A program made the position numbers and the translations under genes. From a candidate division WWE3 bacterium (lineage in GTDB: Bacteria > Patescibacteriota > WWE3 > UBA101185 > UBA10185), in the NCBI GenBank assembly GCA_014729135.1, contig WJKK01000001.1, positions 593 to 64,592 on the forward strand: a DNA stretch of 64,000 bases, in the 5' to 3' direction. Shown here one piece after another: positions 1-61,040 of this stretch. Positions within the stretch are counted from its first letter, which is position 1. Every line of letters starts with the position of its first letter. Below the pieces are notes generated by a model. The model saw nothing but the letters and a program-made list of their open reading frames with translations. It did no database searches and was not told the DNA's origin.

Positions 1-3000
1 AATGGGAATGATGGAACTATTAGTGGTGCTACGTGGCAGGATGAGAGTATGTGTATTAGTGGAGAGTGTCTTTATTTTGACGGCACAGATGACAAAGTTG
101 ACAGCTTCAGCACTTCTCAAAACGCGCAGACCATATCGTTTTGGATACGCCCAATTAGCACAACAGATTCTTTCATAGATCTTACCGGAAGTATTTACGT
201 AAATGCTTCATCCGGAACTGTGACAGGAACAGGATTCACATCACCTACAGTCTACGTAAATGGAGAAACTTCCTCTACAATTACTGCTAACACGTGGCAA
301 TTTGTTACTATCACAACAGAAACTGCTTTTGACGCCAACGCAATTGTAATAGGGCTTGCAAACTCCGATTACTTCAAAGGCTACCTCGACGAAATCAAAA
401 TCTACCCCTACGCCCGCTCCGCCTCCCAAATCCTAAACGACTACGCCAAAGGATCCGCCAGTGCAGGATCAAACGCAGTTTTAGGCGCCAACTCCTTTGG
501 AGGCACCAACACCGCCTCCCTATCCGACGGGTTAGTTGGGTATTGGAAAATGGATGACGATTCATGGGCTGACTCTAGTGGCAACGGCAATGACGGCACG
601 GGATACAATGGAGTTACAACAGCTGCGGGGAAGTTTGGAGATGGAGGGAGTTTTGATGGGGTTGATGATTATGTGGAGATAGGAGATACAGACGTATTAA
701 GTTTTGGTAACGGAAGCATTGACACCGCATTTTCAATAAGTACATGGATAAAAATGGATAATGCAGCACAATTTAGGCTTCCTAGTAAATACGGAACATC
801 TAGCGGACAGGAGTATGGTCTATTTACAAATGCCTCCGGTAAGTTGGGTTTCTATCTATACGATTCATCTAGCTACATAGGTATACTTACAACAGAGGCA
901 CTTACTTCTTATGAGGGGAGCTGGACACATGTATCCGCAAAATATGATGGAACTCAAACCTCCTCCGCAATGTCACTCTACATAAATGGCAAACAAGCAA
1001 CCACGGAAGAGTCTAACAGCGGGACCTATATTGCAATGAGCAATACAAGCTCCCCATTTCTAATGGGGAAATACTATACAAGTTATGGAAACGGGTCCAT
1101 CGACGAGGTGCGTATCTACAACCGTGCCCTTTCCCCCGCCGAAGTCCGAGCCCTTTACGAATACGCCCCCGGCCCCGTAGCCCATTGGAAATTTGATGAT
1201 GGTACAGGAACTGAAGCGGCAGACTCCAGTGGAAATGGGAACACAGGAACTTTAACTAACGGACCTACTTGGACAGCAGGTAAATACGGCAAGGCGCTGA
1301 GTTTTGATGGGACGGATGATTACGTGACCAAAGGGTACACAGAAAATTTAAAGTTAGGTAACAACGGAACCATCGAAGCATGGGTCAACCCCATAAATAC
1401 TAGCAATAACACACACAGTATAGTAAGTTACGGAAACGTATCCGGTTACACCACGGGATATTTACTAAATCAATATGGCACTTCTTTAAGCCTATACTGG
1501 AAAACAGGATCTCCTATTGCTACTGTTAGCAATTTCTTCTCAAAGAACACCTGGACCCATCTAGCAGTTAAAAACTCGGCAGGGAATTTGGAAATATTCA
1601 AAGATGGTATTCTCGTAGCTACAGCTGACTCGGGAGGGGAAATAACTGACGACCATGCAACTTATATCGGGGGGGCTGTATCCAACTACTTTAGTGAGGC
1701 ACTCATCGACGACGTGCGCATATACAACTACGCCCGCTCCCAAAAACAGATCATCGAAGACATGAACGCAGGTCACCCCGCCGGAGGCTCCCCCGTTGGC
1801 AGCCAAGTAGGCTATTGGAAGTTTGACGAAGGTTATGGAGACACCGCCAACGACTCCTCTATTCATGGAAACAACGGTGATTTAGGAGGAAGTGGAGAGG
1901 ACTGCTCTGATGGAGGTACGGGTTGCCCTTCCTGGAGTAATGAAGGAAGGTTTGGCAAAGCGTTGGACTTTAATTCCTCCGAAACCGACAACGTGTCTAT
2001 CGGAGATCTCGGCACTAATATAGGATCGGTGTGTTTTTGGACTAACTTAGATTCAACCACTGAAAAAATTATTGATTTGGATGGAGGCACTCATTACATA
2101 CAAGCCTCCTCAGGAACAGTTACCGGAGAAGGATTTTCATCACCTACTGTTTACTTAAACGGTAAAGAAGGCTCTACTATAGATACTAATTGGAATCACA
2201 TTTGCATCACAACAGCTACATCCTTTGACGCCAATGCAGTTACTGTAGGAAAAGTAGGAAGCGATTATCTGGACGGTATGGTGGACGAACTTAAAATTTA
2301 TAGTTACGAATTAAGCGAGGATGAAGTACGCGTAGAATACAACCGCGGAAAAGCCCTCGTTCTAGGCGCCCAAGGCACAGACCCCTCCGATGGATCCACC
2401 TCCTCTAACTCCGATCTTTCTAAATACTGCGTGCCCGGTGACACCTCCACCTGTAGAGCACCTGTAGGCGAATGGCTTTTTGATGAAGGTACGGGTACTA
2501 CGGCTTATGATAGTAGTGGAAATGGAAATGATGGAACTTTGACTAATGGCCCTGTTTGGAGTGCGGGGAAGGTTGGGAAGGGGTTGAGTTTTGATGGAAG
2601 TGATGATTATGTGGAGAGTGATTCCCCGGGGATTATAGGTACGGGAGAGTTAACCGTAAGCACCTGGTTTTCAACTACGAATACCACCGCAAGTCACGCA
2701 AATACACTGATTAGCTGGGGAGCAGCCCAAGACGGGGAAGGCTTGGAAATAAACGTAGAGAATGGAACGATATGGGTACGTAACTGGTTAAATACGGCCT
2801 ACGCTGGGGAAAACTATAATGATGGAAAATGGCACCACGTTTCGGTGAAAAAAGAAGCAGATACAACAATCGCGGGATGGGAAATATTCGTAGATGGAGA
2901 GAAACTAGAAACAACTACAAGTGGATCGGATACTATCAGTCTGGGAAACACTTACACTGTTGCTATCGGGGATACCTATCATACTCAAAGGTACTACGAC

Positions 3001-3732
3001 GGGCTCATCGACCAAGTCCGCATATACGACTACGCCCGCTCCCCCGCTCAAATCGCCTGGGAATACAACCAAGGCGCTCCCGTAGCCTGGTACAAATTTG
3101 ATGAAGGTGAAGGCACTACTGCTTATGATGCAAGTGGTAACGGAAATAACGGAACTTTAACTAACATGGACCCTGCAACGGATTATGTGGATGGGAAGAT
3201 TAATACTGCGCTTGATTTTGATGGGAGTGATGATTATGTGGAGATTACTAACAATGATGAATTAAACTCAAAATATATAACGTTGTCTGCCTGGGTTAAG
3301 GCAGACGCTATAGGCACACATCCAAGAATAATTGCAAAAGATTCAGTAACAGAAGATGCCGGACAATCCTATCAGTTAATATTACATTCCGCAGGACAAA
3401 TTTTCTTCCGGGGATATGCAGGAAATGCATGGCGGGGAGGAGATTTTGAAACAACCTTTTCCCAAAACGGATGGGAACATGTTGTAGCAACATATGACGG
3501 TGAGGTTTTTAGGGTTTATGTAAATGGAGAACAATCCCCTACCACATACAACTATGTAGGTGCTCTCGATACAGAGGATACGGACAACCTATGCATAGGG
3601 AGCAAGTGTGATAATCCCACAGGATATCCCTTCACGGGACAAATCGACGACGTTCGTATATACAACTATGCACTAACCGACTACCAAGTCAAACAACTCT
3701 ACAACCAAGGCGTCGCCGTACACTTTGACTAA
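1..3732 (+). CDS. Giant surface protein, 3' part only (5' end lies upstream of the window). Repeated LamG/concanavalin-A-like lectin modules
   Basis: Open reading frame runs from base 1 in frame with the 49..3732 ORF. Repeated modules 'GxWKFDEGxGTxAxDSSGNGNxGTLTNGPxW...GKxGxALxFDGxDDYV' and '(D/E)xxRIYN(Y/R)A(L/R)S' are typical of Laminin_G_3/concanavalin-like repeats in large secreted proteins. A stem-loop with a T-run follows at 3769-3797. Confidence 0.8.
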   Translation, partial: NGNDGTISGATWQDESMCISGECLYFDGTDDKVDSFSTSQNAQTISFWIRPISTTDSFIDLTGSIYVNASSGTVTGTGFTSPTVYVNGETSSTITANTWQFVTITTETAFDANAIVIGLANSDYFKGYLDEIKIYPYARSASQILNDYAKGSASAGSNAVLGANSFGGTNTASLSDGLVGYWKMDDDSWADSSGNGNDGTGYNGVTTAAGKFGDGGSFDGVDDYVEIGDTDVLSFGNGSIDTAFSISTWIKMDNAAQFRLPSKYGTSSGQEYGLFTNASGKLGFYLYDSSSYIGILTTEALTSYEGSWTHVSAKYDGTQTSSAMSLYINGKQATTEESNSGTYIAMSNTSSPFLMGKYYTSYGNGSIDEVRIYNRALSPAEVRALYEYAPGPVAHWKFDDGTGTEAADSSGNGNTGTLTNGPTWTAGKYGKALSFDGTDDYVTKGYTENLKLGNNGTIEAWVNPINTSNNTHSIVSYGNVSGYTTGYLLNQYGTSLSLYWKTGSPIATVSNFFSKNTWTHLAVKNSAGNLEIFKDGILVATADSGGEITDDHATYIGGAVSNYFSEALIDDVRIYNYARSQKQIIEDMNAGHPAGGSPVGSQVGYWKFDEGYGDTANDSSIHGNNGDLGGSGEDCSDGGTGCPSWSNEGRFGKALDFNSSETDNVSIGDLGTNIGSVCFWTNLDSTTEKIIDLDGGTHYIQASSGTVTGEGFSSPTVYLNGKEGSTIDTNWNHICITTATSFDANAVTVGKVGSDYLDGMVDELKIYSYELSEDEVRVEYNRGKALVLGAQGTDPSDGSTSSNSDLSKYCVPGDTSTCRAPVGEWLFDEGTGTTAYDSSGNGNDGTLTNGPVWSAGKVGKGLSFDGSDDYVESDSPGIIGTGELTVSTWFSTTNTTASHANTLISWGAAQDGEGLEINVENGTIWVRNWLNTAYAGENYNDGKWHHVSVKKEADTTIAGWEIFVDGEKLETTTSGSDTISLGNTYTVAIGDTYHTQRYYDGLIDQVRIYDYARSPAQIAWEYNQGAPVAWYKFDEGEGTTAYDASGNGNNGTLTNMDPATDYVDGKINTALDFDGSDDYVEITNNDELNSKYITLSAWVKADAIGTHPRIIAKDSVTEDAGQSYQLILHSAGQIFFRGYAGNAWRGGDFETTFSQNGWEHVVATYDGEVFRVYVNGEQSPTTYNYVGALDTEDTDNLCIGSKCDNPTGYPFTGQIDDVRIYNYALTDYQVKQLYNQGVAVHFD

Positions 3733-18784: not shown

Positions 18785-18848
18785 GGGACAGTCCTCTCCG
18801 AGGACAGTCCTTCGAGGGGACAGTCCTCTTAAAGGACTGTCCCCTTTT
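18785..18848. promoter_or_regulatory. Cluster of GGAC(A/T)GTCC palindromes, including a perfect 12-bp-stem hairpin plus TTTT, about 20 nt upstream of sortase copy 1
   Basis: GGGACAGTCCTC (18785), GAGGACAGTCC (18800), and GGGGACAGTCCT-cttaa-AGGACTGTCCCC (18816-18844) followed by TTTT. The same motif lies upstream of sortase copy 2 at 57095-57120. Confidence 0.55.
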
Positions 18849-18916: not shown

Positions 18917-21900
18917 ATGGGGTTGAATATGGTCGTCCAATGGGGTACTATAATTACAATGCCCGAAAACTTGCCCAATATATCTGAAAATTCATCCAAA
19001 AAAGCGACACCTGACAAAACAGGTCAACAACCCTTAAGCACCTCAGATGCAGCTAAAGAACTGGGCATCTCCCCTACTACACTAAAACGAATCCAGAAAA
19101 AATTTAAGCTGAATGTTCCACGCGATGAAAATAATTATCGTGTTTTTGATCAGGAGACTTTGGCAAGTTTTAGGGAGGCACTAGAAATTCACGAGGGAGG
19201 TGGCGCGGCGGCGGAAAAGAATGATTCCGGATCGGGGTCCAGAATGACAGTTTTTTCTCGTCATCCTGACGGAAGTCAAGATCCAGGATCCCGGATCAAG
19301 TCCGGGATGACAGATGGAAATAGGATGACAACACCTGGTCTCGAAATGACGAAATTTCGTCATTCTGAGCTTGACTCAAAATCTGCAGCGTCGATGAGAA
19401 GTGCAAGTCCTGCGGACATTGCACATCGGAATGACAGAAAGGGTGAAACAACCGAGGATCAGAAACTAACAGAAAACGCACAACTCTCCAAAGACCGCGC
19501 AAAACAAAGAGGAGCACTCACGCGAGAAAAAACACAACAAAAACTACTCAAAACCTTACCACTCCCCCTACTTGCAAGCACATTTGCCATGTTCTTTTTA
19601 TTCGGGCTTTTCACTCTTGGAGGCGCTTACTTCCAAAACGCCTCTAAAATAAAGGCAAAAACCCAAAATGTTAAGGCCCTGTTAGCCCACAACCTCAACG
19701 CGCCAATTCAAAATGCTTTTTCTCGCATAGAAAATGAGGTGTCAAATGATGTCAGCGGTTCTTCAATAGAGAATCTTGAAATGACAACAACGCATCATTC
19801 TGACGGAAGTCAAGATCCAGGATCCCGAGTCAAGCTCGGGATGACGGGGGGAAACGGAATGACTACGCTACTCTCCTCCCTAATCAAAAACAAAAAAGAC
19901 CAGCCCGGAGTACTAGCAACCGCCGTACTGGGCAGAAGAACAACTCGCCCCGACTTCGAACTCGACATCAACGTCCCCACAACAATCCGCGACAGCCTCA
20001 CCGTAGAAGGCACCATCTCAGCACGCACCTTCGCCACTCTCGCAGGAGGGCTCTCCACGGACAACCAAGACATAGATGCAGGCACCGGCACAATCACCGC
20101 GGGAACCATCACCGCAACCACAACAAACACCGGAACCCTCAACCTTACAGGACCGGCCACAATCAACAACCTCCTGACAATTGATGACGTCACTCAAACC
20201 ACCTTAGAAGAAGCGCTGGAACTCGCCGGAGACCTGGAAGGCACCTTAAACGCAGCCACCATCGTCACCCTCGGTGGAGCCGACGTTGGCGACATAGACT
20301 CAGGCGAACTTTTAATATTAGACGGCAACGAAATTACATCAGGTGAAATCACCGATTTAGACACAACAGCAATAACAGAACTGGGAACAATTTCAACCGG
20401 AACCTGGACAGCTACAGAAATAGGCCCGACTTATGGAGGCACAGGACTCACAACATACACAACAGGCGACCTCCTCTACTCCTCCGCTTCAAATACACTA
20501 GCCGCCCTCAACATAGGCACATCAGGACAAATGCTGACAGTTGCCGCAACAGGAATCCCACAGTGGCAGTCAGTTCAAGAAGCCGTTGGAGGCGCAGCAT
20601 TTTTACAAGAAGGAAACTCACTTGGAACCACAGCAATACTAGGAACCAATGACGCCTACAACCTAGTTTTTGAAACCAATAACACCGGTCACATGGCACT
20701 AACCTCCTCCGGAAAACTGGGCATTGGAACAACAGATCCCGGATCAGGGTCCGGGATGACAGTCATGGGAGGCAACGTTGGAATTGGCACAACCACCCCC
20801 ACTTCCCTACTCCACGTAGCAGGAGCCGCAGACATTGAAGGACAACTAACCGTAAACGAAGTCCTAATAACCCAAAACGGTATCGACAACTCAAGTGGAG
20901 GTATTACAAATGCCGGACCCATAACCGGAGCAACCGGCTTCACATCAAGTGGAACCATCACACTTAGCGACCTCTCCACAGGAGTGCTAAAATCCTCTGT
21001 TGGGGGCGTAATCTCATCCTCCGCCATAAACCTAGCCGACTCCGGAACCGACTACATCACAGGAACACTAACCCCAGCAAAAGGAGGAACAGGCCTAGCC
21101 TCCTACTCCATTGGCGACGTAATCTACGCATCCGCAGCAGACACACTAGCAGCTTTAGGCGCCGGCGGAGAAGGAGAAGTGCTAACAATAGACTCCGGAC
21201 TCCCCTCTTGGGGAAGCGTCACAGGCGACGGAGGCATCTGTACAAACTGCCTAGTAGACGATCCCGGAAGCACCCAAACCATAACCCCGACAAACGCAAC
21301 CGCCACCGGACTTTCTATAAAACAAGCCGACTCCGGAACCGCGGACGTCTTTAATGTACTGTCAAACGATGGCAATACTACTTTTTTTAAAATCGACAAC
21401 AGCGGAAACGTCGTTTTAGGCAACACCTCCTCCGCAGAATTTACCGTATCACCAACAAGCACCGATCCAATAGCTATTTCACCGGTTGCACAAGGCTCTA
21501 ACGCCTACACAGGAACCATCACCAGCTCCGACTTAACAGCAGCCAGAACATGGACTTTCCCCGACGCCACAGGAGCCGTTTGTCTTGCCACCGGAAACTG
21601 TAGTGGAGTCGGCGCCAACTTGGGAGGTGAAGGAGCACAATACTACATAACCCGCTGGTCAGGACAATACACACTTGAAAACTCAAACATTTGGGATGCC
21701 GGCTCAGGAGTTGGCATAGGCACAACAGACCCAAGCTATGATCTGGATGTAGCCGGAACTTTTAACACCTCAGGTGCAGCTACGTTAGGCAGCACTCTAG
21801 ATGTAACAGGAAACACGAGCCTAGCTGGAGAACTAGACGTCACCCAAGCAACAACACTAAACAGCACACTAGAAGTCACCAGCGCCACCACCCTCTCCTC

Positions 21901-24900: not shown

Positions 24901-27900
24901 CTTTGGAGATTTGATTCCGGGTTACAGCGACGTTTATGATTTGGGGTCTAGCAGTTATAAGTGGAATAATTTGTATTTAGCTGGTGATATTAATTTGTCA
25001 GGGGAGCTGTTGTTAGCGGATGGAACTGCCGCCCTTCCTTCGTTGGCTTTTTCTAGTGATGCCAATACGGGGCTGTACCGTTTGGGAGATGATCAGCTTG
25101 GATTTAGTACGGGAGGGTCTAGTAGGGTTGTGATTGATGAGAGTGGATATGTGGGGATTGGGACGACGGATCCATCCTCTGCACTGAAAATTGAGAATGG
25201 AAACATTGAAATAGGGGGTGATTATAACCCAGGGTTAAAAATATATTCCTGGGAAACCACCCACGGAACAGGTAGTTACGCGCAGTTAGAGAAAACGTCT
25301 CTTACAGTAAGCTCAAGATTCTCTTATGGGGATTTTTCAGTAAAATCGAGAGACAACAGCTTAGATCAAACTAAAACATCCTTGAAAATCCTGGGAGATT
25401 CTGGAAATGTTGGTATTGGAAATAGTGACCCCGAAGAAGCTCTTCATATCCAGAATCCCGCAGGAGCCTACATCAAACTCCAAACAGCTGAAAGTATAGA
25501 TTCCGACTCAGAAGGTTTGATATTTTCACACTATAACCATTCCGGTAATTCTTGGGAGGAAGCCAGCGTATTTTACGATTGGTGGGGTAGAACAGGATTG
25601 AACTACAAATCTAACGGCAGGGACGGTGATCACGCCGACCACAGGTTTTTGGATAATGAGAATAACGTACATATGCTCATAACAGATGCGGGACTTGTTG
25701 GAGTGGGAACCACCGCCCCCGCCTCCACCCTCGACGTGGCCGGTACCGCCTGGCTCCGTGGTGACACGGGTGATAACGGGCTTTTTGTTGAAGCTGGAGG
25801 GAATGTAGGCATCGGAACCACAGACCCAAGCGAAGAGTTAGAAATTAAAGGAAACGGAAGCGCTGATTTAATTTTAAAAAGAAATAATGATGTAACAGGA
25901 GAACAAGGAAATCTCATATTCCAAACTTTCAATGGTACAGAAATGGCAAAAATAACAGGCAACCGCGTGGGCGGAGATGGAGAGCTTAATTTCCATACAG
26001 ATGGAGCCCTAACGATGGTTTTAGACAGATACGGAAGAATTCAGAGCGGCCAAAATATCGACGGCACCCCCAGTAGCTGGCTCGAAATCTACAGACATTC
26101 CCCATCAGCAAATGAGTCTTTGCTCAAGCTTGCAACAGGAAGCAATGATAATTTGTTTAACATTGATAGCGAAGGTGATGCATATATTTCTAATACATTA
26201 GGTATCGGCACCACCTCCCCCACCTCCACCCTCGATGTTGCAGGTACCGCCTGGCTCCGCGGTGACACGGGTGATAACGGGCTTTTTGTTGAAGCAGGAG
26301 GAAATGTAGGTATCGGCACCACCAATCCGGAAAGCCTTTTACACATCGAATCCGGAACAGAAGAGGCATTCAAAATTAAGAATGCGGGTTCTGACCCCGT
26401 TATAAGTTTAGGAAACAGTGGGGGGAACGGCTTAATTAAAGGAGGCCTAAATAACAGTCTATTTATTAGATCTCTAGGAAACTCAAACTCCGAGGGTATA
26501 TCTTTCCAGAATGACACTAGTGATGGAGGGTCACCCACCACTCTGATGCATTTAAATAGACTGGGATACTTAGGTATAGGAACTACTGCTCCTAGTGGAC
26601 AACTCCACTCCACCGGCACTGTTTTCTTTGCGGGGGTTTATGATGATGATTTAAATGGAGGTACTTATAGAGACTTGCTGGTACAAGACGATGGTCAGTT
26701 AGGCTACGACTCCTCCTCTATTCGCTACAAAACTAATGTAATTGACATGGAGGATACCTCATGGATTTATGATTTGCGACCGGTTAACTATGAATACAAA
26801 CAGAAAGATGAAAATGGGAATTATTTAGAAACCGGTACGGGAGTTATGAAGTATGGGCTTATTGCTGAAGAGGTTGAACAGGTTAATGATAGCTTTGTGT
26901 TCTATAACGTGTTGGATGACGGATCTAAACAAGTGGAAGGTGTGCAATATAGAGAACTAGTCACTCCAATTATCCAAGCCGTTCAAGATCAAAAAATAAC
27001 GTTAGATGAGCATGGAATAATCCTTAAAGATCTTGGAGCTGTGGATGAAACCAGCCCTACCCTTTTAGAAATGGAAGACAACATAGCCTCTTTGCAAGCA
27101 GGGCTTGAAACCACAAACACAGAAATCGCAGACATGAGGATGATCCTCGATGAAATCAGCACTTCAGTCCTTGAGAGCAGTGAATCTTTTGGACTGGAAG
27201 AAGGATCATCCTTAACAGAAAGTGGGGTTTTAGAGTCAACAGAAAGCACAAGTAGCACTTCGAACAAGGATGATCCTTCATTAGTTTTGATGGAAATCGA
27301 ATCCGTTTATGATGAGTTTAAAGAATTTGTGGCAGCACTTGGCCTTTCCGTAAACACAGAAACCGAAACTCTAATAGCAGAAAGCAACTTTACAGTAATT
27401 GGACAAACAACCCTGGCTGATACAACAATCACAGGAGATTTGGCGGTAGGATTGCTGACAATCGACTCCATGGAAAACTCTATTGGAATTACAGGGCCCT
27501 CCTGCTATTCAGAAATAACAGGCGAAACAAATGAAGCACTTTGCAAAACGGGAACTCTATATTTACAAAAGAACCTGGCAGGTAATTTGGATATATTCAA
27601 TGGCAAAATCGTCCTCTCCCCTGATGGTAATTTAGAGGTTGCAGGAGCAGTAGCAGCTTCGGCTATAAGGGTAGATGAAAATGGAGGTACTATAGGATCG
27701 GGCATGCTAGAGGCAGGGGAAACTTCTCTAATAGTTGCAAGTGCAGAGATCACTAGTAAGTCCAAAATTTTCGTAACCCCAACAAATTCAACAGTCGGCC
27801 AAACACTATGGATAGGAGAAAAAACCGAGGGGGAAAGTTTTGAAGTTAAAATAGACTCTCCGGTAGATTCTGACATAACCTTTGACTGGTGGATTATAAA

Positions 27901-44403: not shown

Positions 44404-44480
44404 GGGCCGTTAGCTCAGCTGGCTAGAGCACTACGCTGGCAGCGTAGGGGTCGGGGGTTCGAATCCCCCACGGTCCACCA
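44404..44480 (+). tRNA. tRNA-Ala (anticodon GGC)
   Basis: GGGCCGT-TA-GCTCAGCTGGCTAGAGC-A-CTACG-CTGGCAG-CGTAG-GGGTC-GGGGG-TTCGAAT-CCCCC-ACGGTCC-A-CCA, with the G3.U70 Ala identity pair. Confidence 0.95.
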
Positions 44481-45082: not shown

Positions 45083-46552
45083 TCATGGCACTATCCTGCC
45101 ATGGAGAACCATGGAGTTTGCGTAAATCTCAACCCGTAGTTCCACATCCTGGGGATAGGGACCAAAGGTGAGATCCGCAGAGCCAGATTCAATAACAACG
45201 GACTCATCCCGAGAGAAATGAGACCCGTCTGCCTTGGATATGGGAACATAGACACCCCCTGCACTCTGCAGCACATGCGGTGCCCTTTCTGTGGGAATCC
45301 CCAGATCCATCAGTACGGCGTTATACAACGTAGCGACATTGCAAGCGCCCGCGCCGATGATGTAACCACCGGAACTTCCCTTATTGTAGATGTAATCACC
45401 CGAAGTAGTCGCGTAACCGCTTGGGTGACATCCATTGAAGCTCCATCTAGTGCCTGCGGGCACGTAAATGGTATCCACACCATCCCCTCCGCAGGAAGGG
45501 GTCTCACGCTCCACCATCTCCTGCACGGTCATGATCATGTTATGCTCGAAAACCGGCATGATTAGCAGAGTCTCGCAGGTATCGAAACCTTCCCTGGGAT
45601 AGCAGGAGGTTATCGACTCCCCACGGGTGGGCTGGTCTTCCAGTTCGGCCAAGTAGGGCTCCCACCAAGCAGCTTCATACTTGACCATGACACGATTGGC
45701 ATATGTGTCATACGGCCCGGACCCGTTATAGCAACCTAGGGTCCCACGGATGTCTCCCGGATGAGCCTTCCAACACTGATCCGCCACCATAAAGGCAGCA
45801 CGTTGGTTGCCCTGCCAGGAGCCTTGAGCCATCTCCATCTTATCGGGGTGCCACCTGTCGTTGATCTGACACATCCCCCAATCGATGGAGTCTCCATTAT
45901 CACCCTGAACCAGGTCCCCATTGTCGTCGTACTGACGACTCCCGCCTGATTCGTACTCGCAGATAGAGAGTACAACCTCGGCAGGGATGGAAAACTGTGG
46001 CTCAGATTCCAGGAGGTAGGCATGTTCGACGATTGCTCGTCTAGACGGGTTGCCTACCTCGTCACGTGTCTCCCCCGTAAACGCACCCGTCAGCGGAGGG
46101 GGGTCGCGCGACCCACTCGTATCGGGGAAGAGATAGTTCCAGTCAAAACGCCCCTGCTCGACCGCTGTCCAGACAAGCTGAATACGATCTACGGGCGTTT
46201 GAGCGGCTGCATAGCGCCCTGCCGGAATCCAGCGACCCGGGAGAAGGAGTAGAAGTATGATGGGCAGGAAAAGCCATACAACTCCCAGAAGAATCGCTCC
46301 TTTGAGGAGGAACTCTATCTGGGCCACCCGCTTGTTTAGCCGGGCAATCATGTGCTCCGCAATCTCCCACCGCTGCGAGGGCGATAGGAAATCCGTGGCG
46401 CTCATTTGGCGCCGGGCACGATTAGCTGCTCCCGAGATGGCCCCGTAGGCAGCAACTCTGTCGTAAAGAACTTCGACATCCGTTACCAGCTCAACCCACT
46501 CCTGAACATCTTTTTCTGTAGTAGGCATGGCGCGCTTACTCACGTACATCAA
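45083..46552 (-). CDS. Membrane-anchored lytic-transglycosylase (SLT/lysozyme-like) domain protein with an uncharacterised C-terminal domain
   Basis: Transmembrane helix 'ILLGVVWLFLPIILLLLL'. 'ICEYESGGSRQYD...IDWGMCQINDRWH' resembles the E-S...G(L)MQI(N) catalytic core of family-1 lytic transglycosylases. GC-rich codon usage. Confidence 0.6.
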   Translation of the reverse strand: MMYVSKRAMPTTEKDVQEWVELVTDVEVLYDRVAAYGAISGAANRARRQMSATDFLSPSQRWEIAEHMIARLNKRVAQIEFLLKGAILLGVVWLFLPIILLLLLPGRWIPAGRYAAAQTPVDRIQLVWTAVEQGRFDWNYLFPDTSGSRDPPPLTGAFTGETRDEVGNPSRRAIVEHAYLLESEPQFSIPAEVVLSICEYESGGSRQYDDNGDLVQGDNGDSIDWGMCQINDRWHPDKMEMAQGSWQGNQRAAFMVADQCWKAHPGDIRGTLGCYNGSGPYDTYANRVMVKYEAAWWEPYLAELEDQPTRGESITSCYPREGFDTCETLLIMPVFEHNMIMTVQEMVERETPSCGGDGVDTIYVPAGTRWSFNGCHPSGYATTSGDYIYNKGSSGGYIIGAGACNVATLYNAVLMDLGIPTERAPHVLQSAGGVYVPISKADGSHFSRDESVVIESGSADLTFGPYPQDVELRVEIYANSMVLHGRIVP

Positions 46553-47513
46553 TGCCGGACCTCATCGCAGCCTCGTCGGCATCAACAATAGTCGTGGTCC
46601 CATCGAATTTTTCGGCGGCCAAGTGGCCGCGTTTGCCCTCGCGCTTATAGTGAACTGCCTTTAGCTGCTCCGGTGCAACTCCCATTGCCCGGAGACCAGA
46701 GCGAAGCTGAGTCCACTTGTTGGCGGGAAGGGTCACCCAGTCCGCGATAGCACCCATACCCTCCGCCTGCACACGTGCCACCAGCTCTTGGCTCAAGTGC
46801 GGCGTCGCTATGCTCACCGTTTCCTTGACCATTTTCTCGTACACCTTGAGACCGTGCACGAAGTTACTCTCCATGACGAGGGCCAAGAGTTCTTCGCGAT
46901 CATGCGTCTTAGAAGCCATGGCCGGAAAGATGAGGAAGGCACCCACCGAGGCGAGAGTCAACGCGCCCAAGACCAACATGGGTAGCTGAACCGAAAAGCG
47001 GGGCATGAGAAACTGGAGCCAACCGCGAATGCCGAAGAAGACCAGGATAACCCAGAGGGACGCGGCACCGGCACCAAGCATGATGAAGAAGATACGCGCA
47101 GGGGCTTTGAAGATGTAGCGCCGAAACGCCATACCCTCGCGCACACTGATAGAAAGACTGAGCGTACCCACAACAAACCTCACGAAATGCTCCGTGAGAG
47201 CCTGAAAGAACTTGATGGTGAAGCAGAGGCCCAGCACGATTCCGAACCACTCGACGGCGGGACGCGCACCTTCCCAGGGGGCGCCAACGGTTTCCCAGAG
47301 AGACACTAGGTGTGTCGCCTCCACGATGTTCTCGACGCCGGGGATACGCAGCCCCAGCAGAATTATGCCGAAACCTACCAGGGCAAAGAAGACCATACCT
47401 GCGTGCATGGCCTTCATAGCCGAAGTGGCTGTCGTGCCAAAGCGGGCTTCTGCCGCTGCCTTATCAAGATCTTTTAGATAGTCGGGGGGTTCGAACAACC
47501 TGATTTTACTCAT
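46536..47513 (-). CDS. Hypothetical polytopic membrane protein (island)
   Basis: ORF with about 4 hydrophobic helices. Overlaps its neighbours by a few bases, suggesting an operon. Confidence 0.5.
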   Translation of the reverse strand: MSKIRLFEPPDYLKDLDKAAAEARFGTTATSAMKAMHAGMVFFALVGFGIILLGLRIPGVENIVEATHLVSLWETVGAPWEGARPAVEWFGIVLGLCFTIKFFQALTEHFVRFVVGTLSLSISVREGMAFRRYIFKAPARIFFIMLGAGAASLWVILVFFGIRGWLQFLMPRFSVQLPMLVLGALTLASVGAFLIFPAMASKTHDREELLALVMESNFVHGLKVYEKMVKETVSIATPHLSQELVARVQAEGMGAIADWVTLPANKWTQLRSGLRAMGVAPEQLKAVHYKREGKRGHLAAEKFDGTTTIVDADEAAMRSGIDVRE

Positions 47514-47528
47514 CTTTTCTCACTCCTT

Positions 47529-48023
47529 TTATTGGGGCGGAGGAATTCTTAGTTCCTGCCCCACGTATAGTGAACTGCTGAATGACAGGCCATTTTCAGT
47601 AGCAATAGCTCGAGCGAATTCTGCCAAACTCAAACTACCGCGCGGATATTGGCGAGCAACTGCGTAAAAACCCTCACCGCTTTGAACGATATGAATAGCC
47701 TCCTCCCCCGACGAGGAAGGAGTTGGAGTCTGAGTTGGTTCGGATTCAGGTTCAGAAGGCTCCTCCGTTTCGGAAGGAGGGGCAATCGCGGACGAGGTCG
47801 GTGTGGCAGTAGGCGCAGGTGTCATGTCCTCATCCTGCACAGGCTCCGACGTCTCCTCGGGTTTCCCCATAGGAGTCGCCGGCGACGTGGCGGTGGGCGT
47901 AGGGGGCATGGCGGTTAAAGCCATGTCCTCCGGCACTAGCGCCACGTCCTGCTTGAGCAGGAAGAAAACGGCAATTAGCGCGAGCACCCACCAGTACTTC
48001 TTAAACAACTTGATTGGGTTCAT
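47529..48023 (-). CDS. Secreted/anchored Pro/Thr/Glu-rich protein with C-terminal LysM domain (island)
   Basis: N-terminal transmembrane or signal segment. C-terminal 'HIVQSGEGFYAVARQY...LAEFARAI...YVGQELRIP' is a LysM signature. Confidence 0.65.
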   Translation of the reverse strand: MNPIKLFKKYWWVLALIAVFFLLKQDVALVPEDMALTAMPPTPTATSPATPMGKPEETSEPVQDEDMTPAPTATPTSSAIAPPSETEEPSEPESEPTQTPTPSSSGEEAIHIVQSGEGFYAVARQYPRGSLSLAEFARAIATENGLSFSSSLYVGQELRIPPPQ

Positions 48024-48115: not shown

Positions 48116-49510
48116 CTACAGCGTCCCCGTCGTCATGACGAGGAGAACGAGTCCGACCAGAGAGGCCCCCAACACATCCCAGGGCTGCGGGAGCTGCGCT
48201 CCCATAAACCACTCAAACTTCATAAGGGGCGACTTCCAGTAAGGGGATGACTTACTCCCCCCTCCGAGAGACACGACCATGAGTCCCATGAAGATAGTGA
48301 AAACGAACCAGAAGGTTCGCCACGCAAGACCCAGGCCAAGAAACCGGAGCAAGAAGAATACCAGGCCAGCGCCGAAAACAACAAAGATAGAGAGAGCGTC
48401 CTTTCGACGCCACATATCGCTCAAGTAGAGGAGGAAGCTGAGGAGGAAACAGAAGTAGATCACCAGGGAAAAGATAGCCCCCTCAGGAGTCTCCCCCATC
48501 AAGACGGCGTAGGCGGCCTCACCAACCAGCACGGGTTGACGAGCATCTACGGTAAGTCCTAGAGTCTGAGACCATAAACCCAGGATTCCGTAGATCAGCC
48601 CGACAATCCCGTGCAGCTGAAAGTACCAGCTCCAGGGAGACAGGTCGAACTGCGGAAAAACGGAGACGAGAACCATGATGATGAGGTTGAGGAGAATCCA
48701 CCAAAGCGCCGAAACATTCCCTTGAAACAGGAAATTATCGACGGCCCCCGCCCGAAAGACAAACAGGTTGAAACCGGTCAAGATGACTGGCACCAGGATG
48801 TCTTGGGCCCACTCACCGCGAGCGTTAGCCTCGAGCGAGGACGAAACAACAAGGATCAGCAGTATGACAAAGAGAGCTACATGGAGAGGCTCCAGGGAAG
48901 CCAGGCGAATGGAGATCAAGCGCCCCTGCAACTCAAGATAGACGCCGGTGCCCTCGAAACTGGGAAGCTCGGGAATGACACCGTTGTTTACGGCCACCCG
49001 AACCCCGATGAGAGCTACTGCGACAGTGATGAGTATGATAAGGGTGCCGACGAAGGGAGCAGCGGTTAGGAAGTCTCCTGCCTTACTGCCCTTCTTCTTG
49101 TCACCATCTTTCTTGCCCTTCTCGCCTCCTTCCTTACCTTTGTCACCGTCCTTTTTGGGCTTTTCCTCTTTGGGCTCATTTTGCCCTTTGGATCCGCCAT
49201 TGCCACCGTTCCCCTTCTCCTCCTCTTCCTTATTCACTTCCTCCTCCTCAGAGGCAACGGCCGCGGGTGCAGCTGAGGGCTGCGGCGCCGGAGGCGCAGC
49301 AGTGGATGCATGAGCCTTCTCATAAGCCTCCTGGATACGTCCGGCTACGATTGCAGTATTCCGGGCGCCGTCGAAAAACTTCCGCAATTCTCCCACCCCC
49401 CTGTTATAAACCCAAACTACCTGCTCAGGGGACAGGGCCGCCACAATACCATGCTCATAGAGCTTGGTATGCAGCTCCTCCAGCGTATAATCACTCAACT
49501 TCTTAGCCAT
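48116..49510 (-). CDS. Hypothetical protein: N-terminal soluble domain, K/E/G-rich low-complexity linker, roughly 10-helix membrane domain (island)
   Basis: ORF with GC-rich codon usage and a 'KGKEGGEKGKKDGDKKKG' low-complexity stretch. Confidence 0.55.
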   Translation of the reverse strand: MAKKLSDYTLEELHTKLYEHGIVAALSPEQVVWVYNRGVGELRKFFDGARNTAIVAGRIQEAYEKAHASTAAPPAPQPSAAPAAVASEEEEVNKEEEEKGNGGNGGSKGQNEPKEEKPKKDGDKGKEGGEKGKKDGDKKKGSKAGDFLTAAPFVGTLIILITVAVALIGVRVAVNNGVIPELPSFEGTGVYLELQGRLISIRLASLEPLHVALFVILLILVVSSSLEANARGEWAQDILVPVILTGFNLFVFRAGAVDNFLFQGNVSALWWILLNLIIMVLVSVFPQFDLSPWSWYFQLHGIVGLIYGILGLWSQTLGLTVDARQPVLVGEAAYAVLMGETPEGAIFSLVIYFCFLLSFLLYLSDMWRRKDALSIFVVFGAGLVFFLLRFLGLGLAWRTFWFVFTIFMGLMVVSLGGGSKSSPYWKSPLMKFEWFMGAQLPQPWDVLGASLVGLVLLVMTTGTL

Positions 49511-49922: not shown

Positions 49923-51125
49923 CTACCCCTCCTCCACAACAGAACCACCAAAAACCACCCGCCTATTAGGCAAAGTCCGCAAATTATAAGTCTTCACAAC
50001 CTCCTCCGGAGTAAAAACCCGCCGCTCCGGCAACGTAGGCAAAACCTCCGCCAAACGCCACTGCAAAGCCTCCACACCCTCCCCCGTTACTGCTGAAATC
50101 CCCAAAACGTCAACCCCCTCCGCTGCAAACTGCTCCACAATAGCCTCAAACGACTCCTTAACCTCCGTAATATCCAACTTGTTAATCACAACTATTTCCT
50201 TTTTCTGAGCCAATTCCTTGCTGTAGTCGGCCAACTCCGCCCGAATAGTCTTGTAAGCATCCCAAGCAGCGGTTGCTAACTCTTCAGGAGCGCCTATGAC
50301 GGTTTCTGCGCCTTTCTCAAAGTCAATTCCCCCAAAAGGATCTATCACATGCACCAACAAGCGCGTTCTTTCTACGTGGCGCAAAAATTCGTCTCCAAGG
50401 CCTTTGCCTTTACTGGCGCCTTCTATTAATCCGGGGATGTCGGCTATTAGGACGGAGTTTACGGATCCCTTCCCCAAACCGCCCGCCGGCAACTCCAAAA
50501 CCCCCAAATTAGGACTTAAAGTTGTAAACGGATAGCTTGCAGTTTTTGCATTAGATTTAGTTAATTGATTAATTAATGTACTCTTTCCGGCATTGGGGAG
50601 CCCCACCAAGCCAATATCGGCTATCATTTTGATCTCTAAAAGAAGCTCTTTTTCCTCGCCTTTAGTACCTTTTGTAAATTGCCTGGGGGCTTGATTTGTA
50701 GAACTCCTGAATCTCCAATTTCCTTTACCGCCAACGCCTCCCCTACAAATGAGTAAGCTTTGTCCACTTTCTACTAAGTCGCCTACCAAAAGCTCACCAT
50801 CTTTACCTTTTTTTCCATCTTCTCCCCTGCGCGCCTCATAAACCAAAGTCCCAACAGGAACCAAAATCTCCAAATCCTCCCCATCTTTACCGGAGCATTT
50901 CTTTTTACCGCCACGTGCGCCATCGCCTGCTTCATAAAGAGGCTTGGCTCTAAAATCCCGTAAAGTTGCCATATTATGCGTAGCCACAATGTAAACATCT
51001 CCTCCGTCGCCTCCATCGCCTCCATCAGGGCCTCCCTTGGGGATAAATTTGGCGCGTTTAAAGGAAACGTGACCATCTCCGCCATCGCCGGCTTTAACTT
51101 GTATTTTTGCTTTGTCTATTAACAT
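49923..51125 (-). CDS. obg: GTPase Obg/CgtA
   Basis: N-terminal glycine-rich Obg fold 'VKAGDGGDGHVSFKRAKFIPKGGPDGGDGGDGGDV'. G1 motif 'GLVGLPNAGKSTL'. Confidence 0.85.
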   Translation of the reverse strand: MLIDKAKIQVKAGDGGDGHVSFKRAKFIPKGGPDGGDGGDGGDVYIVATHNMATLRDFRAKPLYEAGDGARGGKKKCSGKDGEDLEILVPVGTLVYEARRGEDGKKGKDGELLVGDLVESGQSLLICRGGVGGKGNWRFRSSTNQAPRQFTKGTKGEEKELLLEIKMIADIGLVGLPNAGKSTLINQLTKSNAKTASYPFTTLSPNLGVLELPAGGLGKGSVNSVLIADIPGLIEGASKGKGLGDEFLRHVERTRLLVHVIDPFGGIDFEKGAETVIGAPEELATAAWDAYKTIRAELADYSKELAQKKEIVVINKLDITEVKESFEAIVEQFAAEGVDVLGISAVTGEGVEALQWRLAEVLPTLPERRVFTPEEVVKTYNLRTLPNRRVVFGGSVVEEG

Positions 51126-51577
51126 ATAAATTTAACTGAGGTACTCTTTTGAGAAGAAGCCTCCTTGCGAAAAGCTTTATCAAAAGTAACCAAATAAGCA
51201 ACCTCGTTTTTTTCAGCAATTACAAAATGGAAGGCATCACGAGGATCGAGCTTAATTTCAGTCATCAAATCAAGATATTCTAACATATTCACCATTCCGG
51301 AGGGCAACGGGAGAATTGTAGCTGCGCTAAGAACTATAAATGTAGACAATAAAACGGCTATGCTTTCGCGGGAGTGCTTGTATGTACGTAGAAGGACGTA
51401 GTAGACCTCATCAAGTGTTAAGGCGCTTAAGATTAGTTCAGCCTGTTTTTTACAAAAAGTTGCGTAGAGCTTTTTTGCCCTTTTATGATCGGGATGAGGC
51501 TTAACAAGATAAGCTATTATTACATTGGAGTCAAAGTAGACGGTTGAATTTTCCTTTATTAAAGGTTCTTGATTCAT
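51119..51577 (-). CDS. PIN-domain (VapC-like) toxin
   Basis: 'YFDSNVIIAYL...', 'D..HFVIAEKN.VAYLVTFDKAF' PIN acidic residues. Confidence 0.65.
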   Translation of the reverse strand: MNQEPLIKENSTVYFDSNVIIAYLVKPHPDHKRAKKLYATFCKKQAELILSALTLDEVYYVLLRTYKHSRESIAVLLSTFIVLSAATILPLPSGMVNMLEYLDLMTEIKLDPRDAFHFVIAEKNEVAYLVTFDKAFRKEASSQKSTSVKFIC

Positions 51578-56251: not shown

Positions 56252-57082
56252 CTAAATCCTCTTAGCCTTAACCACAAAACGATTGTTATAAGTCCCCTCA
56301 GCGGGCACCCAAACTCCTCCGCAAGTCACAAGCGTTAAAGAAACCCCCTCCCCCTTCAAAACTCTTTCCACACGATCATCGTCAAAAATACTCACATAGA
56401 AAGTTTCGGTGATTTGATAGGCGAAAGTTCTTCCAAACGAATCAACTAAGTAGACTTTATCATTTACTTTTAGGCTTTTCAAGTTGTAAAAAGCAGCCGG
56501 CAATCCTTGCGCGTTGTCATAGTGCCCGTTAATTACAATGTTGCCTTCCTCGCCTGCTTTGGCGGAGCGCCTGTACCATCCGGCTTTGCTCCACTCTGTA
56601 GGAGTTTGCATTTGCCCGGCGGAGTTTACGTCGACTTTTTCCAGGGCGGCTTCTATTAACTTTTTTTCAGAGACTTTGCCATCGTTGTCGACTTTTTTGG
56701 CATAGATTTTCACAGGATCCTCGTATATGGGAGTTAATTTGCTGCCAAAGGCTGACGGTTTTTCTTCTGTAGAGTCAGCGTCGCTTGTGGATGTTTTGGA
56801 GGCGTTAGCCCCTCCTGTGGAGACGCCTAAAGCGTTAAGTGCTTTTACTCCGGAGGATTTAAGCTGCGCGCCTGCCTCCCCTAGGAGTTGCGCTGTTTTG
56901 CTGCCAAAATCGGATAAATTTAGTTCTATTGAAGGTAATTTTGGCACAGATACAGATGAAAATGTTTTGCTAAGAAGTTTGCTGTTTGTGTTTATTTGAG
57001 TGAAATAGATCAGTACCACACCTACAGCGATGCTTGTGCTTACTAATATTCCGGTTGTCAGATGCAACATTCTTTCTTTCAT
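56252..57082 (-). CDS. Sortase-family transpeptidase (copy 2)
   Basis: N-terminal transmembrane helix. 'LTLVTCGG' TLxTC motif. Confidence 0.75.
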   Translation of the reverse strand: MKERMLHLTTGILVSTSIAVGVVLIYFTQINTNSKLLSKTFSSVSVPKLPSIELNLSDFGSKTAQLLGEAGAQLKSSGVKALNALGVSTGGANASKTSTSDADSTEEKPSAFGSKLTPIYEDPVKIYAKKVDNDGKVSEKKLIEAALEKVDVNSAGQMQTPTEWSKAGWYRRSAKAGEEGNIVINGHYDNAQGLPAAFYNLKSLKVNDKVYLVDSFGRTFAYQITETFYVSIFDDDRVERVLKGEGVSLTLVTCGGVWVPAEGTYNNRFVVKAKRI

Positions 57083-57094
57083 ATCCTATAAAAA

Positions 57095-57120
57095 GGGACT
57101 GTCCTCGTAGAGGACAGTCC
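57095..57120. promoter_or_regulatory. GGACTGTCCTC-gta-GAGGACAGTCC palindrome/hairpin 13 nt upstream of the sortase copy 2 start codon
   Basis: Perfect 11-bp inverted repeat. On the mRNA it is followed by UUUUU, a weak SD and the AUG. Same motif family as 18785-18848. Confidence 0.55.
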
Positions 57121-58592: not shown

Positions 58593-59060
58593 CTACTCCC
58601 TCAAAGTTGGAACAATAACCTCGATTCCCTCCTCGGAAAACAACTCAAAATCCGTGGAGTTAAAAGTTACAACCCGATGAATGTCATTTGTTAGCATAGT
58701 GGCCACGAGATAAGCGTCAAAAACCATGTTAGATTTTAAATCGTATTTCGTAATAAGCTCACTAACAATGCGCCAAGAATGATATCCGGGATGAACAATA
58801 CGACAAAGACTTAAAACGGGAGCCATGCGCTCAAGAGCTACAGAAGGACTTAAGGTCTCTTTATACTTACCGTGAGTTAAAACTCGTGTTGCTTCTAGGA
58901 CATTCTGGTGTGCAACAATACCTTTAAATAGTCCTAACTCTAATTGGTTATAAACCTGAAGAGCTTCACCATGAAAATCAGACTTAGCATTAACAGCATA
59001 AACCAAAACATTGGAGTCTAGAAGAGCCGCGCCTGTTATTTCCTTTAGATACTTAGTCAT
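58593..59060 (-). CDS. PIN-domain VapC-like toxin
   Basis: 'LLDSNVLVYAV...', 'DAYLVATMLTNDIHRVVTFNSTDF'. Start placed at the internal ATG (MTKYLKE), overlapping the antitoxin stop. The track ORF extends to 59105. Confidence 0.65.
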   Translation of the reverse strand: MTKYLKEITGAALLDSNVLVYAVNAKSDFHGEALQVYNQLELGLFKGIVAHQNVLEATRVLTHGKYKETLSPSVALERMAPVLSLCRIVHPGYHSWRIVSELITKYDLKSNMVFDAYLVATMLTNDIHRVVTFNSTDFELFSEEGIEVIVPTLRE

Positions 59061-59271
59061 AAAGTTCAGCACGATCAAAATTATCCATAGCAGGATCCAA
59101 GTCAACGGGCTTTAAAGGCTGCCGCAATTCCTTCAAAGGAACTCCTAACAAACCCTCATATAACACCTTGTTAAACATATCCTGAAGAGTGCTATCCCTC
59201 TCCAGAGCCAGACGCTCCAGTTCTTTTTTTAGATCTGCATCTATTTTTACTGTGGTTTTTATTTTATTCAT
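59053..59271 (-). CDS. Ribbon-helix-helix (CopG/VapB-like) antitoxin
   Basis: 'TTVKIDADLKKELERLALERDSTLQDMFNKVL' RHH N-terminus. 72 aa, overlaps the toxin. Confidence 0.6.
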   Translation of the reverse strand: MNKIKTTVKIDADLKKELERLALERDSTLQDMFNKVLYEGLLGVPLKELRQPLKPVDLDPAMDNFDRAELYD

Positions 59272-60858: not shown

Positions 60859-61040
60859 TTTATAATATGCATAAACTCAATATTATGCCTAATTATAATA
60901 TGCAGAAGAGATTAAAGCAATAAATAGGCGTTAGATAAAAGATAAGATAATAGAAAAGCTTCTTTGATGACATGAATTTTTATCTAACAAGGCTAAAAAC
61001 TCCGGGCCAGAAATCTCAAGAAACCCGGAAAACCGTAAAA

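Follow-up and report, generated by a model that had tools for sequence, protein, structure and literature searches.

How do short palindromes come to lie in frame within the coding sequence of a very large gene, and does their symmetry serve that gene? We addressed this question in a stretch of 64,000 nt from a candidate division WWE3 bacterium (GenBank assembly GCA_014729135.1, contig WJKK01000001.1, positions 593 to 64,592; hereafter the window), in which an open reading frame (ORF) of 2995 codons for a giant protein contains, according to a structural scan, seven hairpin units and at least five half-units between positions 19221 and 20761. A preliminary description of this region had reported two copies of a 55-bp element with two shorter relatives, and had likened them to Rickettsia palindromic elements (RPEs) or, alternatively, to a cis-acting RNA structure. 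Judged from their sequence, the units are CGTC-tagged repetitive extragenic palindromes (REPs), and we consider it highly probable that they represent selfish or neutral insertions, which were multiplied by local copying, are tolerated where the protein has disordered linkers or a junction between repeats, and are translated as additional linker.

The scanner required a tag of the form [CTA][GA]TC, a stem of 8–9 bp beginning and ending with AT, a loop of 4–6 nt and at most one non-pair. Under strict settings it returned seven units in the 64 kb, all of them within 19221–20761, compared to 1.1 on average and at most 3 in shuffled sequences, while a relaxed scan of the remaining window yielded nothing REP-like and a count equal to shuffle expectation. 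All units follow one plan, with an unpaired tag (CGTC, TGTC or CATC), a stem of 8 bp starting with A-T/T-A, a loop of 4–6 nt and a 3-nt tail (Table 1). CGTC and TGTC each occur three times and the degenerate CATC once; the stems of all seven units comprise 8 bp with AT at both start and end, three being perfect and four carrying one mismatch or wobble. Loops are 4–5 nt long in five units (GGAA twice, CTTGA three times) and 6 nt long at 19221 and 20733, and the tails read CCA twice and CCT twice in the four dimer units, CAT, CTG and CTG in the single ones. The two shorter relatives, originally placed at 19227–19250 and 20735–20763, are thus real units, to which the scan added a full unit in opposite orientation (19358–19385) and five half-units. 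The latter consist of a right arm and a tag ending in RRATGAC and are spaced by about 18–21 nt around the dimers. This motif is clustered accordingly, since GGATGAC, GAATGAC or AAATGAC occurs 26 times in the window and nine of these lie between 19242 and 20754, one in a different frame.

Each 55-mer is a head-to-head (HH) dimer of two unlike units with outward tags and no spacer (19259–19312 and 19793–19846), dimer 1 reading CGTC-ATCCTGAC-GGAA-GTCAAGAT-CCA fused to (A)GG-ATCCCGGA-TCAAG-TCCGGGAT-GACA. The 55-mers at 19259–19313 and 19793–19847 share 48 of 55 bases, which is the 87% identity first reported; similarity between the two copies reaches 72 nt at 83% (repeat family D4), and the 23-mer GGAAGTCAAGATCCAGGATCCCG common to both occurs exactly twice in the window and not once in 100 shuffles. 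The compensatory change of the inner stem could be reproduced as well: pairing is perfect in both ATCCCGGA/TCCGGGAT of copy 1 and ATCCCGAG/CTCGGGAT of copy 2, which differ by four substitutions at two paired positions (GA/TC to AG/CT).

CGTC-tagged REPs were defined by Di Nocera, De Gregorio and Rocco (2013, BMC Genomics 14:522, PMC3733652). In their definition, the unpaired terminal tag is CGTC, often TGTC or CCTC, the stem has 8–9 bp with complementary A and T at the first and second positions, the loop has 4 nt in family 1 and 5 nt in families 2–4, and an unpaired tail of 3 nt, mostly CCA, follows; units mainly form HH dimers with the tags outside, and no dedicated or associated transposase is known for them. 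Since tag, stem, tail, HH pairing, sequence relatedness to units of other genomes and lack of an adjacent transposase gene equal this published definition, we assign the window units to CGTC-1-type (GGAA loop) and CGTC-2-type (CTTGA loop) REPs. A Pfam scan of 39 window ORFs yielded no transposase family, in agreement with the published lack of a dedicated enzyme. The likeness extends to (hetero)dimers and to occasional codogenic units inside genes: according to PMC3733652, more than half of the intragenic CGTC units are dimers or groups encoding 20–30 amino acids (aa), intragenic clusters encode 43–82 aa, and the supplementary table lists peptides such as RHPGLDPGSR..., RHPGLDPGSRFSS..., RHSELVSGS and ...PASAGMT, which begin with RHP or RHSE or end in GMT. 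Akin to these, the window encodes RHPDGSQDPGSR...GMT, and RHSELDSKS compares with RHSELVSGS of CGTC-2. The window units differ in that their host belongs to Patescibacteria/WWE3, outside the five phyla listed in PMC3733652, and in being intragenic in a single gene throughout, with two 6-nt loops, arrays of half-units and spacerless dimers.

Other families of short palindromes were compared in the same way. Miniature inverted-repeat transposable elements measure 70–300 bp and have terminal inverted repeats of 15–30 bp and target-site duplications, whereas the units measure 27–29 nt and the dimers 54 nt, and a flanking direct duplication was not seen around the dimers. GTAG REPs and their REPIN doublets, which are linked to RAYT transposases, likewise are short tagged hairpins, which probably move as inverted dimers and lie mostly outside genes, with rare intragenic copies. 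We rejected membership, since the window tags are CGTC/TGTC instead of GTAG and the window yielded neither a RAYT gene nor a Y1 transposase domain. Neisseria dRS3 repeats are intergenic and associated with prophage integration, in contrast to the window units, which show no such context. The RPE-1 elements of Rickettsia measure about 100–150 bp. Beyond these distinctions, dRS3 belongs to the same superfamily and is often clustered in mosaics with other repeats, and spacers of 1–5 bp occur in some GTAG dimers (PMC3733652). The resemblance to RPEs proposed at the outset is borne out by the same source, in which RPE-6 and RPE-4 of R. conorii are equated with CGTC-1 and CGTC-4, and dRS3 with CGTC-1, whereas RPE-1 (Ogata et al., as cited in PMC3733652) is a longer, Rickettsia-specific palindromic insertion. 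For RPE-4 and RPE-6, which carry the CGTC tag, the link follows from this stated equivalence and a comparison by description. RPEs in general are palindromic, lie in frame in functional ORFs with insert-free relatives and are tolerated in loops or linkers, as is seen here; they differ in that many genes are struck genome-wide in R. conorii, compared to one gene in 64 kb in the window.

Relatives in other genomes were collected with the pattern ATCCCGNNTCARGN{2,3}CGGGATGAC, in which the conserved part of the right unit is fixed and two stem positions per arm are free. It matches three times in the window and never in shuffles. The 24-nt core was found in at least 120 stretches of species-representative genomes (genome_contigs) from many phyla and in 94 viral contigs or stretches (IMG/VR). 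Host names and unit statistics given here refer to the matches listed. The hosts comprise Alpha-, Beta-, Gamma- and Deltaproteobacteria, with Sphingomonadales, Ramlibacter, Polaromonas, Coxiellaceae and Rickettsiales; Binatia; Bacteroidetes and other Bacteroidota families, Treponema and families of Clostridia (Defluviitaleaceae, Oscillospiraceae); genera of Actinobacteria (Propionicimonas, Micropruina), Chloroflexi, Mesoaciditoga and Omnitrophota; Cloacimonadota, Zixiibacteriota, Sulfuricurvum and Gastranaerophilaceae; and, within Patescibacteria, Saccharimonadales, Parcubacteria, Dojkabacteria and Azambacteria. Watson–Crick complementarity at both free stem positions was observed for 126 of 134 units from genomes and for 104 of 113 from viral contigs (92–94%, compared to 6% by chance), an unbiased sign of hairpin constraint, since complementarity was not imposed by the pattern. 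The tag reads GACG or GACA in 93% of the genome units and the tail TGG (= CCA) in 54% of them (54–71% across relatives). The type ATCCCGGA-CTTGA-TCCGGGAT, to which the right unit of dimer 1 belongs, is the commonest elsewhere, and the AG/CT stem variant of dimer 2 occurs in none of the 247 units collected elsewhere.

The arrangement of these relatives is also similar. The usual flank layout is GTCAT-stem-CTTGA-stem'-ATCCA, a spacer of 0–30 nt and TGGAT-stem-TCAAG-stem'-ATGAC, the two arms often differing in stem. In two Sphingomonas loci (L074, L081) the unit CGTC-ATCCTGAC-GAAA-GTCAGGAT-CCA matches the left unit of dimer 1, and the dimer layout of a 4-nt-loop unit next to ATCCCGGA-CTTGA-TCCGGGAT lies between genes both there and in a metagenome-assembled genome of Saccharimonadales (L103). 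Over the related loci, 42% of units fall in frames of at least 150 aa compared to 88% of random positions, a crude test blurred by long spurious frames in GC-rich genomes; in low-GC Patescibacteria loci such as L103, units are mainly intergenic and often form close heterodimers of the window kind.

Two further observations concern these relatives. Half-unit tails (...NNGGGATGAC) repeat in tandem with a period of 12–21 nt directly after the hairpin in 7–10% of family units (loci L005, L029, L051, L057, L070, L077, L105 and L120), comparable to 19313–19351 and 19847–19864 of the window. Such arrays were not found in the available part of PMC3733652 and might tell how the units are copied. The viral or prophage contigs (L126–L205) contain the CGTC-2 core with matching stem covariation, one of them (L182) with seven matches in 14.6 kb; these matches may belong either to true phage DNA or to host sequence flanking predicted prophages.

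The family-wide covariation changes the reading of the paired substitutions within the giant gene. They had been taken as evidence for selection on structure in this coding region; since stem covariation is general to the family, selection on this mRNA need not be invoked. A compensatory change can also arise by hairpin-templated mutation or by conversion from other copies. All copies of the preliminary description are translated in frame with the 2995-aa ORF, giving RHPDGSQDPGSRIKSGMT and HHSDGSQDPGSRVKLGMT, the Gly/Ser/Asp-rich linkers noted before. Among the plus-strand frames of the dimer, only the frame of the gene lacks a stop codon, and because any copy surviving in an essential ORF must use it, we regard the in-frame state as survivorship. 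The four stem substitutions keep the pairing and replace two residues, I by V and S by L, and units occur in both orientations and in two frames with unlike peptides (GSRIKSGMT, RHSELDSKS, HRNDR), which together indicate a repeat of DNA and not of peptide. A selected linker motif (DGSQDPGSR..GMT) that was duplicated in the protein, with incidental dyad symmetry, would fit the hydrophilic, linker-like character of the stretches, which are rich in Gly, Ser, Asp and Pro and add about 75, 33 and 10 residues, and true peptide repeats abound in the giant protein (for instance GIGTTDP, and D1, a repeat of 116 nt described below). However, this reading is already contradicted by the unrelated peptides that arise from one DNA unit, by homologs without the motif, by the identical 24-nt core with covarying stems in non-coding DNA of unrelated phyla, and by copy differences that concentrate at paired stem positions and change the peptide; we consider it extremely improbable. 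For annotation, the N-terminal linkers should be regarded as containing about 120 residues of repeat origin, which are not to be taken as domains or motifs.

Whether the units are insertions was addressed by comparison to homologous proteins. The giant protein starts with a MerR-type helix-turn-helix (HTH), followed by a hydrophilic linker, a single transmembrane (TM) helix, a second linker, a Thr/Gly-rich ectodomain and Peptidase_S74. A search with the N-terminal part gave one homolog, after which a search with the ectodomain yielded the ortholog P0004; a scan of metagenome proteins returned the known WWE3 homolog and three HTH-only matches, and nothing else. The contig of P0004 (L125) contains PEGA (+), sortase (−) and HTH-TM protein (+) genes in the same order as the window, the neighbouring genes being about 69% identical in nucleotides and the protein 50% identical in aa, and no REP units were found at this syntenic locus. 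P0004, the WWE3 homolog P0001 (L121) and P0010 all display the HTH-linker-TM-linker-ectodomain layout, and their alignments show gaps at the REP-coded stretches: the peptides are missing altogether instead of being encoded by other codons, while the ORF of the window is continuous, as for RPEs inserted in frame with insert-free homologs. With one ortholog devoid of units and three homologous proteins devoid of the peptides, the stretches look like lineage-specific insertions in disordered linkers, and parsimony favours a gain in the lineage of the window. An assembly artefact is unlikely, since the units lie in an uninterrupted 9-kb ORF whose frame is kept.

These comparisons also bear on the second proposal of the preliminary description, a cis-acting RNA structure. 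In this reading, hairpins of the mRNA would slow or tune translation on either side of the TM codons and thereby aid co-translational membrane insertion. Full dimers do flank these codons, dimer 1 ending 243 nt before them and dimer 2 beginning 160 nt after them (about 250 and 200 nt had been estimated). In RNA folding, the inner hairpins of 9 bp are robust, with a centroid of about −14 kcal/mol, and local hairpins reach z = −2.3 (20728–20768) and z = −3.5 (19336–19382); the paired stem change, moreover, keeps pairing at the cost of two amino acids. Stability is however confined to the inner hairpins, since the folding of the whole 55-mers is not superior to that of shuffled sequence (z = −1.8 and −1.3). 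In the mRNA sense, each of the four imperfect hairpins (19221, 19259, 19358, 19793) contains a C·A mismatch that would be G·U only in the antisense, whereas selection on the mRNA fold would tolerate G·U instead; the strand asymmetry of G·T and A·C is about 5 to 3 among 15 imperfect pattern-matched units, too few to interpret. In addition, half-units, which make up a fifth of the cluster, are unable to form hairpins, the syntenic ortholog and more distant HTH-TM-ectodomain homologs do without such structures, and the units belong to a generic family lying mostly outside genes in many phyla. A function in translation or membrane insertion is therefore very improbable.

Directly supported are the anatomy, the membership in the family, the lack of units in the ortholog, the constraint on the frame and the covariation of stems across the family; on this basis, we propose a model in which CGTC REP units entered the giant gene in the lineage of this WWE3 bacterium, giving a cluster of two spacerless HH heterodimers of CGTC-1-type and CGTC-2-type units, three single units and several half-units. 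Local copying would have followed entry: dimers 1 and 2 agree in mismatch and loop and are flanked by similar half-units, and both were probably copied from a single composite of about 75–95 nt. The insertions would have persisted in tolerant sites, namely the disordered cytoplasmic linker between HTH and TM helix, the extracellular linker behind the TM helix and a junction of ectodomain repeats, and by being read in a stop-free frame. In this model, the hairpin symmetry including the GA/TC to AG/CT change would reflect a constraint or mechanism acting at the DNA level on the whole family and not on expression of this gene, for which a trans-acting enzyme recognising the folded single strand or hairpin-templated correction are candidates.

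A different role is suggested by the placement of the units. They could serve as recombination substrates which remodel the gene and drive variation of the surface protein, since the dimers are direct repeats 534 nt (178 codons) apart, a multiple of three (family D4), and could delete or duplicate the TM segment in frame. The unit at 20733–20761 would then mark the REP-mediated replacement of a module: it sits exactly where P0004 and P0010 have about 75 aa (...YIEGNLEVTG...) between two GIGTTxP motifs (20711–20830). PMC3733652 further describes REPs as targets of insertion sequences, and hairpins or cruciforms of REP dimers as a cause of genome instability. Nevertheless, we regard this explanation as quite unlikely, as it draws on a single genome, as deletion of the TM helix would probably inactivate the protein, as the alignment around 20733 depends on two homologs with 33–50% identity in a repetitive region, and as 83–87% identity over 55–72 nt is a poor substrate for homologous recombination. 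The same two features, the unit in place of the 75-aa module and the in-frame direct dimers bracketing the TM helix, underlie a broader proposal, namely that in the streamlined genomes of the candidate phyla radiation (CPR), with scant intergenic space, CGTC REPs survive mainly in disordered linkers of giant surface-protein genes, where they supply new linker peptide and act as breakpoints at which modules are lost, gained or exchanged. This is unlikely in our estimate, and if true, REPs would drive surface-protein variation in Patescibacteria.

Several points weigh against selfish or neutral insertion. REPs are normally dispersed and extragenic, whereas all seven units in the 64 kb covered here, a part of an 864-kb contig, reside in one gene, and the other 62 kb of the window, with dozens of intergenic regions, hold none. 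The 6-nt loops of two units fall outside the published range of 4–5 nt in PMC3733652; the one at 20733–20761 can alternatively form a 9-bp stem, U·G pair included, around a loop of 4 nt. Gain instead of loss is argued by parsimony from one close and two distant homologs with poorly aligning linkers, and the unit at 20733, rather than being a clean insertion, occupies an indel junction. The effect on the protein, most likely neutral and limited to extra linker length, is something we infer. Finally, the exact dimer core CTGACGRAAGTCARGATCCAGGATCCCG had no match in the metagenome collection, and for aa 100–160 (61 residues, REP region A) no protein sharing three 5-residue words was present in a collection of 5.8 billion clusters. 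A search of the literature by sequence strings returned primer matches only.

Taken as REP insertion, the locus is a new example of a known phenomenon, the new aspects being the CPR host, a cluster confined to the inside of one giant gene for a surface protein, and the much wider distribution of the family over phyla and viral contigs in our scans. It provides a clean and well-controlled case, with a syntenic insert-free ortholog, of selfish hairpin repeats made part of a protein, and extends CGTC-tagged REPs to a CPR bacterium. Our scans place these REPs in many phyla beyond the five listed in 2013 (PMC3733652), as well as in viral contigs, and this breadth, together with the near-perfect stem covariation, sharpens the question of what mobilises or maintains them without a known transposase.

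Table 1. Units of the REP cluster and landmarks of the host gene, in window coordinates.
Feature	Position	Strand	Sequence and remarks
Host gene, ORF of 2995 codons	18917–27904	+	
MerR-type HTH codons (aa 41–86)	19037–19174	+	upstream of REP region A
Single REP unit	19221–19249	−	TGTC-ATTCTGGA-CCCCGA-TCCGGAAT-CAT; 8-bp stem, one T·G (C·A mismatch in mRNA sense); read as DSGSGSRMT
HH dimer 1, left unit (CGTC-1 type)	19259–19285	+	CGTC-ATCCTGAC-GGAA-GTCAAGAT-CCA; one C·A mismatch
HH dimer 1, right unit (CGTC-2 type)	19285–19312	−	TGTC-ATCCCGGA-CTTGA-TCCGGGAT-CCT; perfect 8-bp stem
Two half-units (right arm and tag) after dimer 1	19313–19330, 19331–19351	−	...AATAGGATGACA, ...TCTCGAAATGACG; 18- and 21-nt spacing
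Single unit, CGTC-2 type, opposite orientation	19358–19385	+	CGTC-ATTCTGAG-CTTGA-CTCAAAAT-CTG; one C·A mismatch; read as RHSELDSKS
Half-unit	19420–19436	−	CATCGGAATGACAG; frame (HRNDR) unlike other ...ATGAC pieces
Single TM helix codons (aa 214–239)	19556–19633	+	between REP regions A and B
Half-unit	19770–19787	−	AATCTTGAAATGACAAC; just upstream of dimer 2
HH dimer 2, left unit	19793–19819	+	CATC-ATTCTGAC-GGAA-GTCAAGAT-CCA; degenerate tag; one T·G plus a C·A mismatch identical to that of dimer 1
HH dimer 2, right unit	19819–19846	−	CGTC-ATCCCGAG-CTTGA-CTCGGGAT-CCT; perfect stem
Half-unit after dimer 2	19847–19864	−	GGGGGGAAACGGAATGACT
Single unit in ectodomain	20733–20761	−	TGTC-ATCCCGGA-CCCTGA-TCCGGGAT-CTG; read as DPGSGSGMT; between two GIGTTxP motifs

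Known RNA structures were considered for the cluster as well. In the Rfam scan, nothing in the REP region reached gathering score. The best candidate, RAGATH-10 (RF03147), scored 22.1 bits compared to a threshold of 41.2, on the minus strand of 19252–19316 only (E = 0.03–0.29); being sub-threshold and without a match in copy 2 or in 18 related loci, it was treated as chance. A hammerhead-like core (CUGA...GAAA...GUC) was dismissed on inspection, as was a CCA-bearing minihelix resembling tRNA, the pieces being simple hairpins without Rfam support.

The host gene itself likely starts at M15 (18959), as suggested by the ortholog alignment, and adjoins a sortase gene and a gene with a PEGA domain. 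PEGA and sortase genes neighbour the HTH-TM gene in the window and in L125 alike. The very long ectodomain of the giant protein consists of GIGTTxP repeats and ends with the Peptidase_S74 chaperone domain (aa 2600–2661). A recurrent CPR architecture, which combines a MerR-type HTH at the N terminus with one TM helix and a fibre-like ectodomain of very large size, is seen in the window protein, L125 (2454–4871), P0001, P0010 and P0089; a DNA-binding domain which is membrane-anchored and fused to a giant surface fibre is unusual. Within the ectodomain, the 116-nt direct repeat D1 (25706–25821 and 26207–26322, 91% identity, 501 nt apart) encodes TLDVAGTAWLRGDTGDNGLFVEAGGNVGIGTT and represents a recent internal duplication of an ectodomain module, unrelated to the REPs. 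The giant protein (with either of two starts) is absent from a large protein collection, as are the PEGA protein encoded next to it and the sortase in our reading, in contrast to L7/L12 (MBD3365722.1) and NDK (MBD3365734.1) of the window, which are present there as WWE3 proteins and match these NCBI entries exactly; the public record may annotate the giant gene differently or as a pseudogene.

Further features of the window are unrelated to the cluster. The 9-bp palindrome GGACWGTCC occurs four times with exact 16-nt spacing at 18786–18842, in the intergenic stretch from which the sortase gene (start 18771, −) and the giant gene diverge, and twice more at 57096–57120, just upstream of a second sortase gene (56252–57082, −). 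These six copies compare to 0.34 expected, and the ortholog locus L125 has one (1530–1538); the palindrome may be a putative operator or promoter element of sortase genes. Between 44700 and 49600, next to tRNA-Ala (44404–44480), G+C rises to 0.49–0.57 compared to about 0.42 for the window. This block of four consecutive minus-strand ORFs (45083–46552, 46536–47513, 47529–48023 and 48116–49510), for which no Pfam match was obtained, may be foreign DNA. The 3' third of the window (51119–51577, 58593–59105 and 59524–62273) encodes two PIN-domain proteins and two adjacent AAA_14/DUF4143 ATPases, and the ORF at 49–3732 contains four Laminin_G_3 domains.

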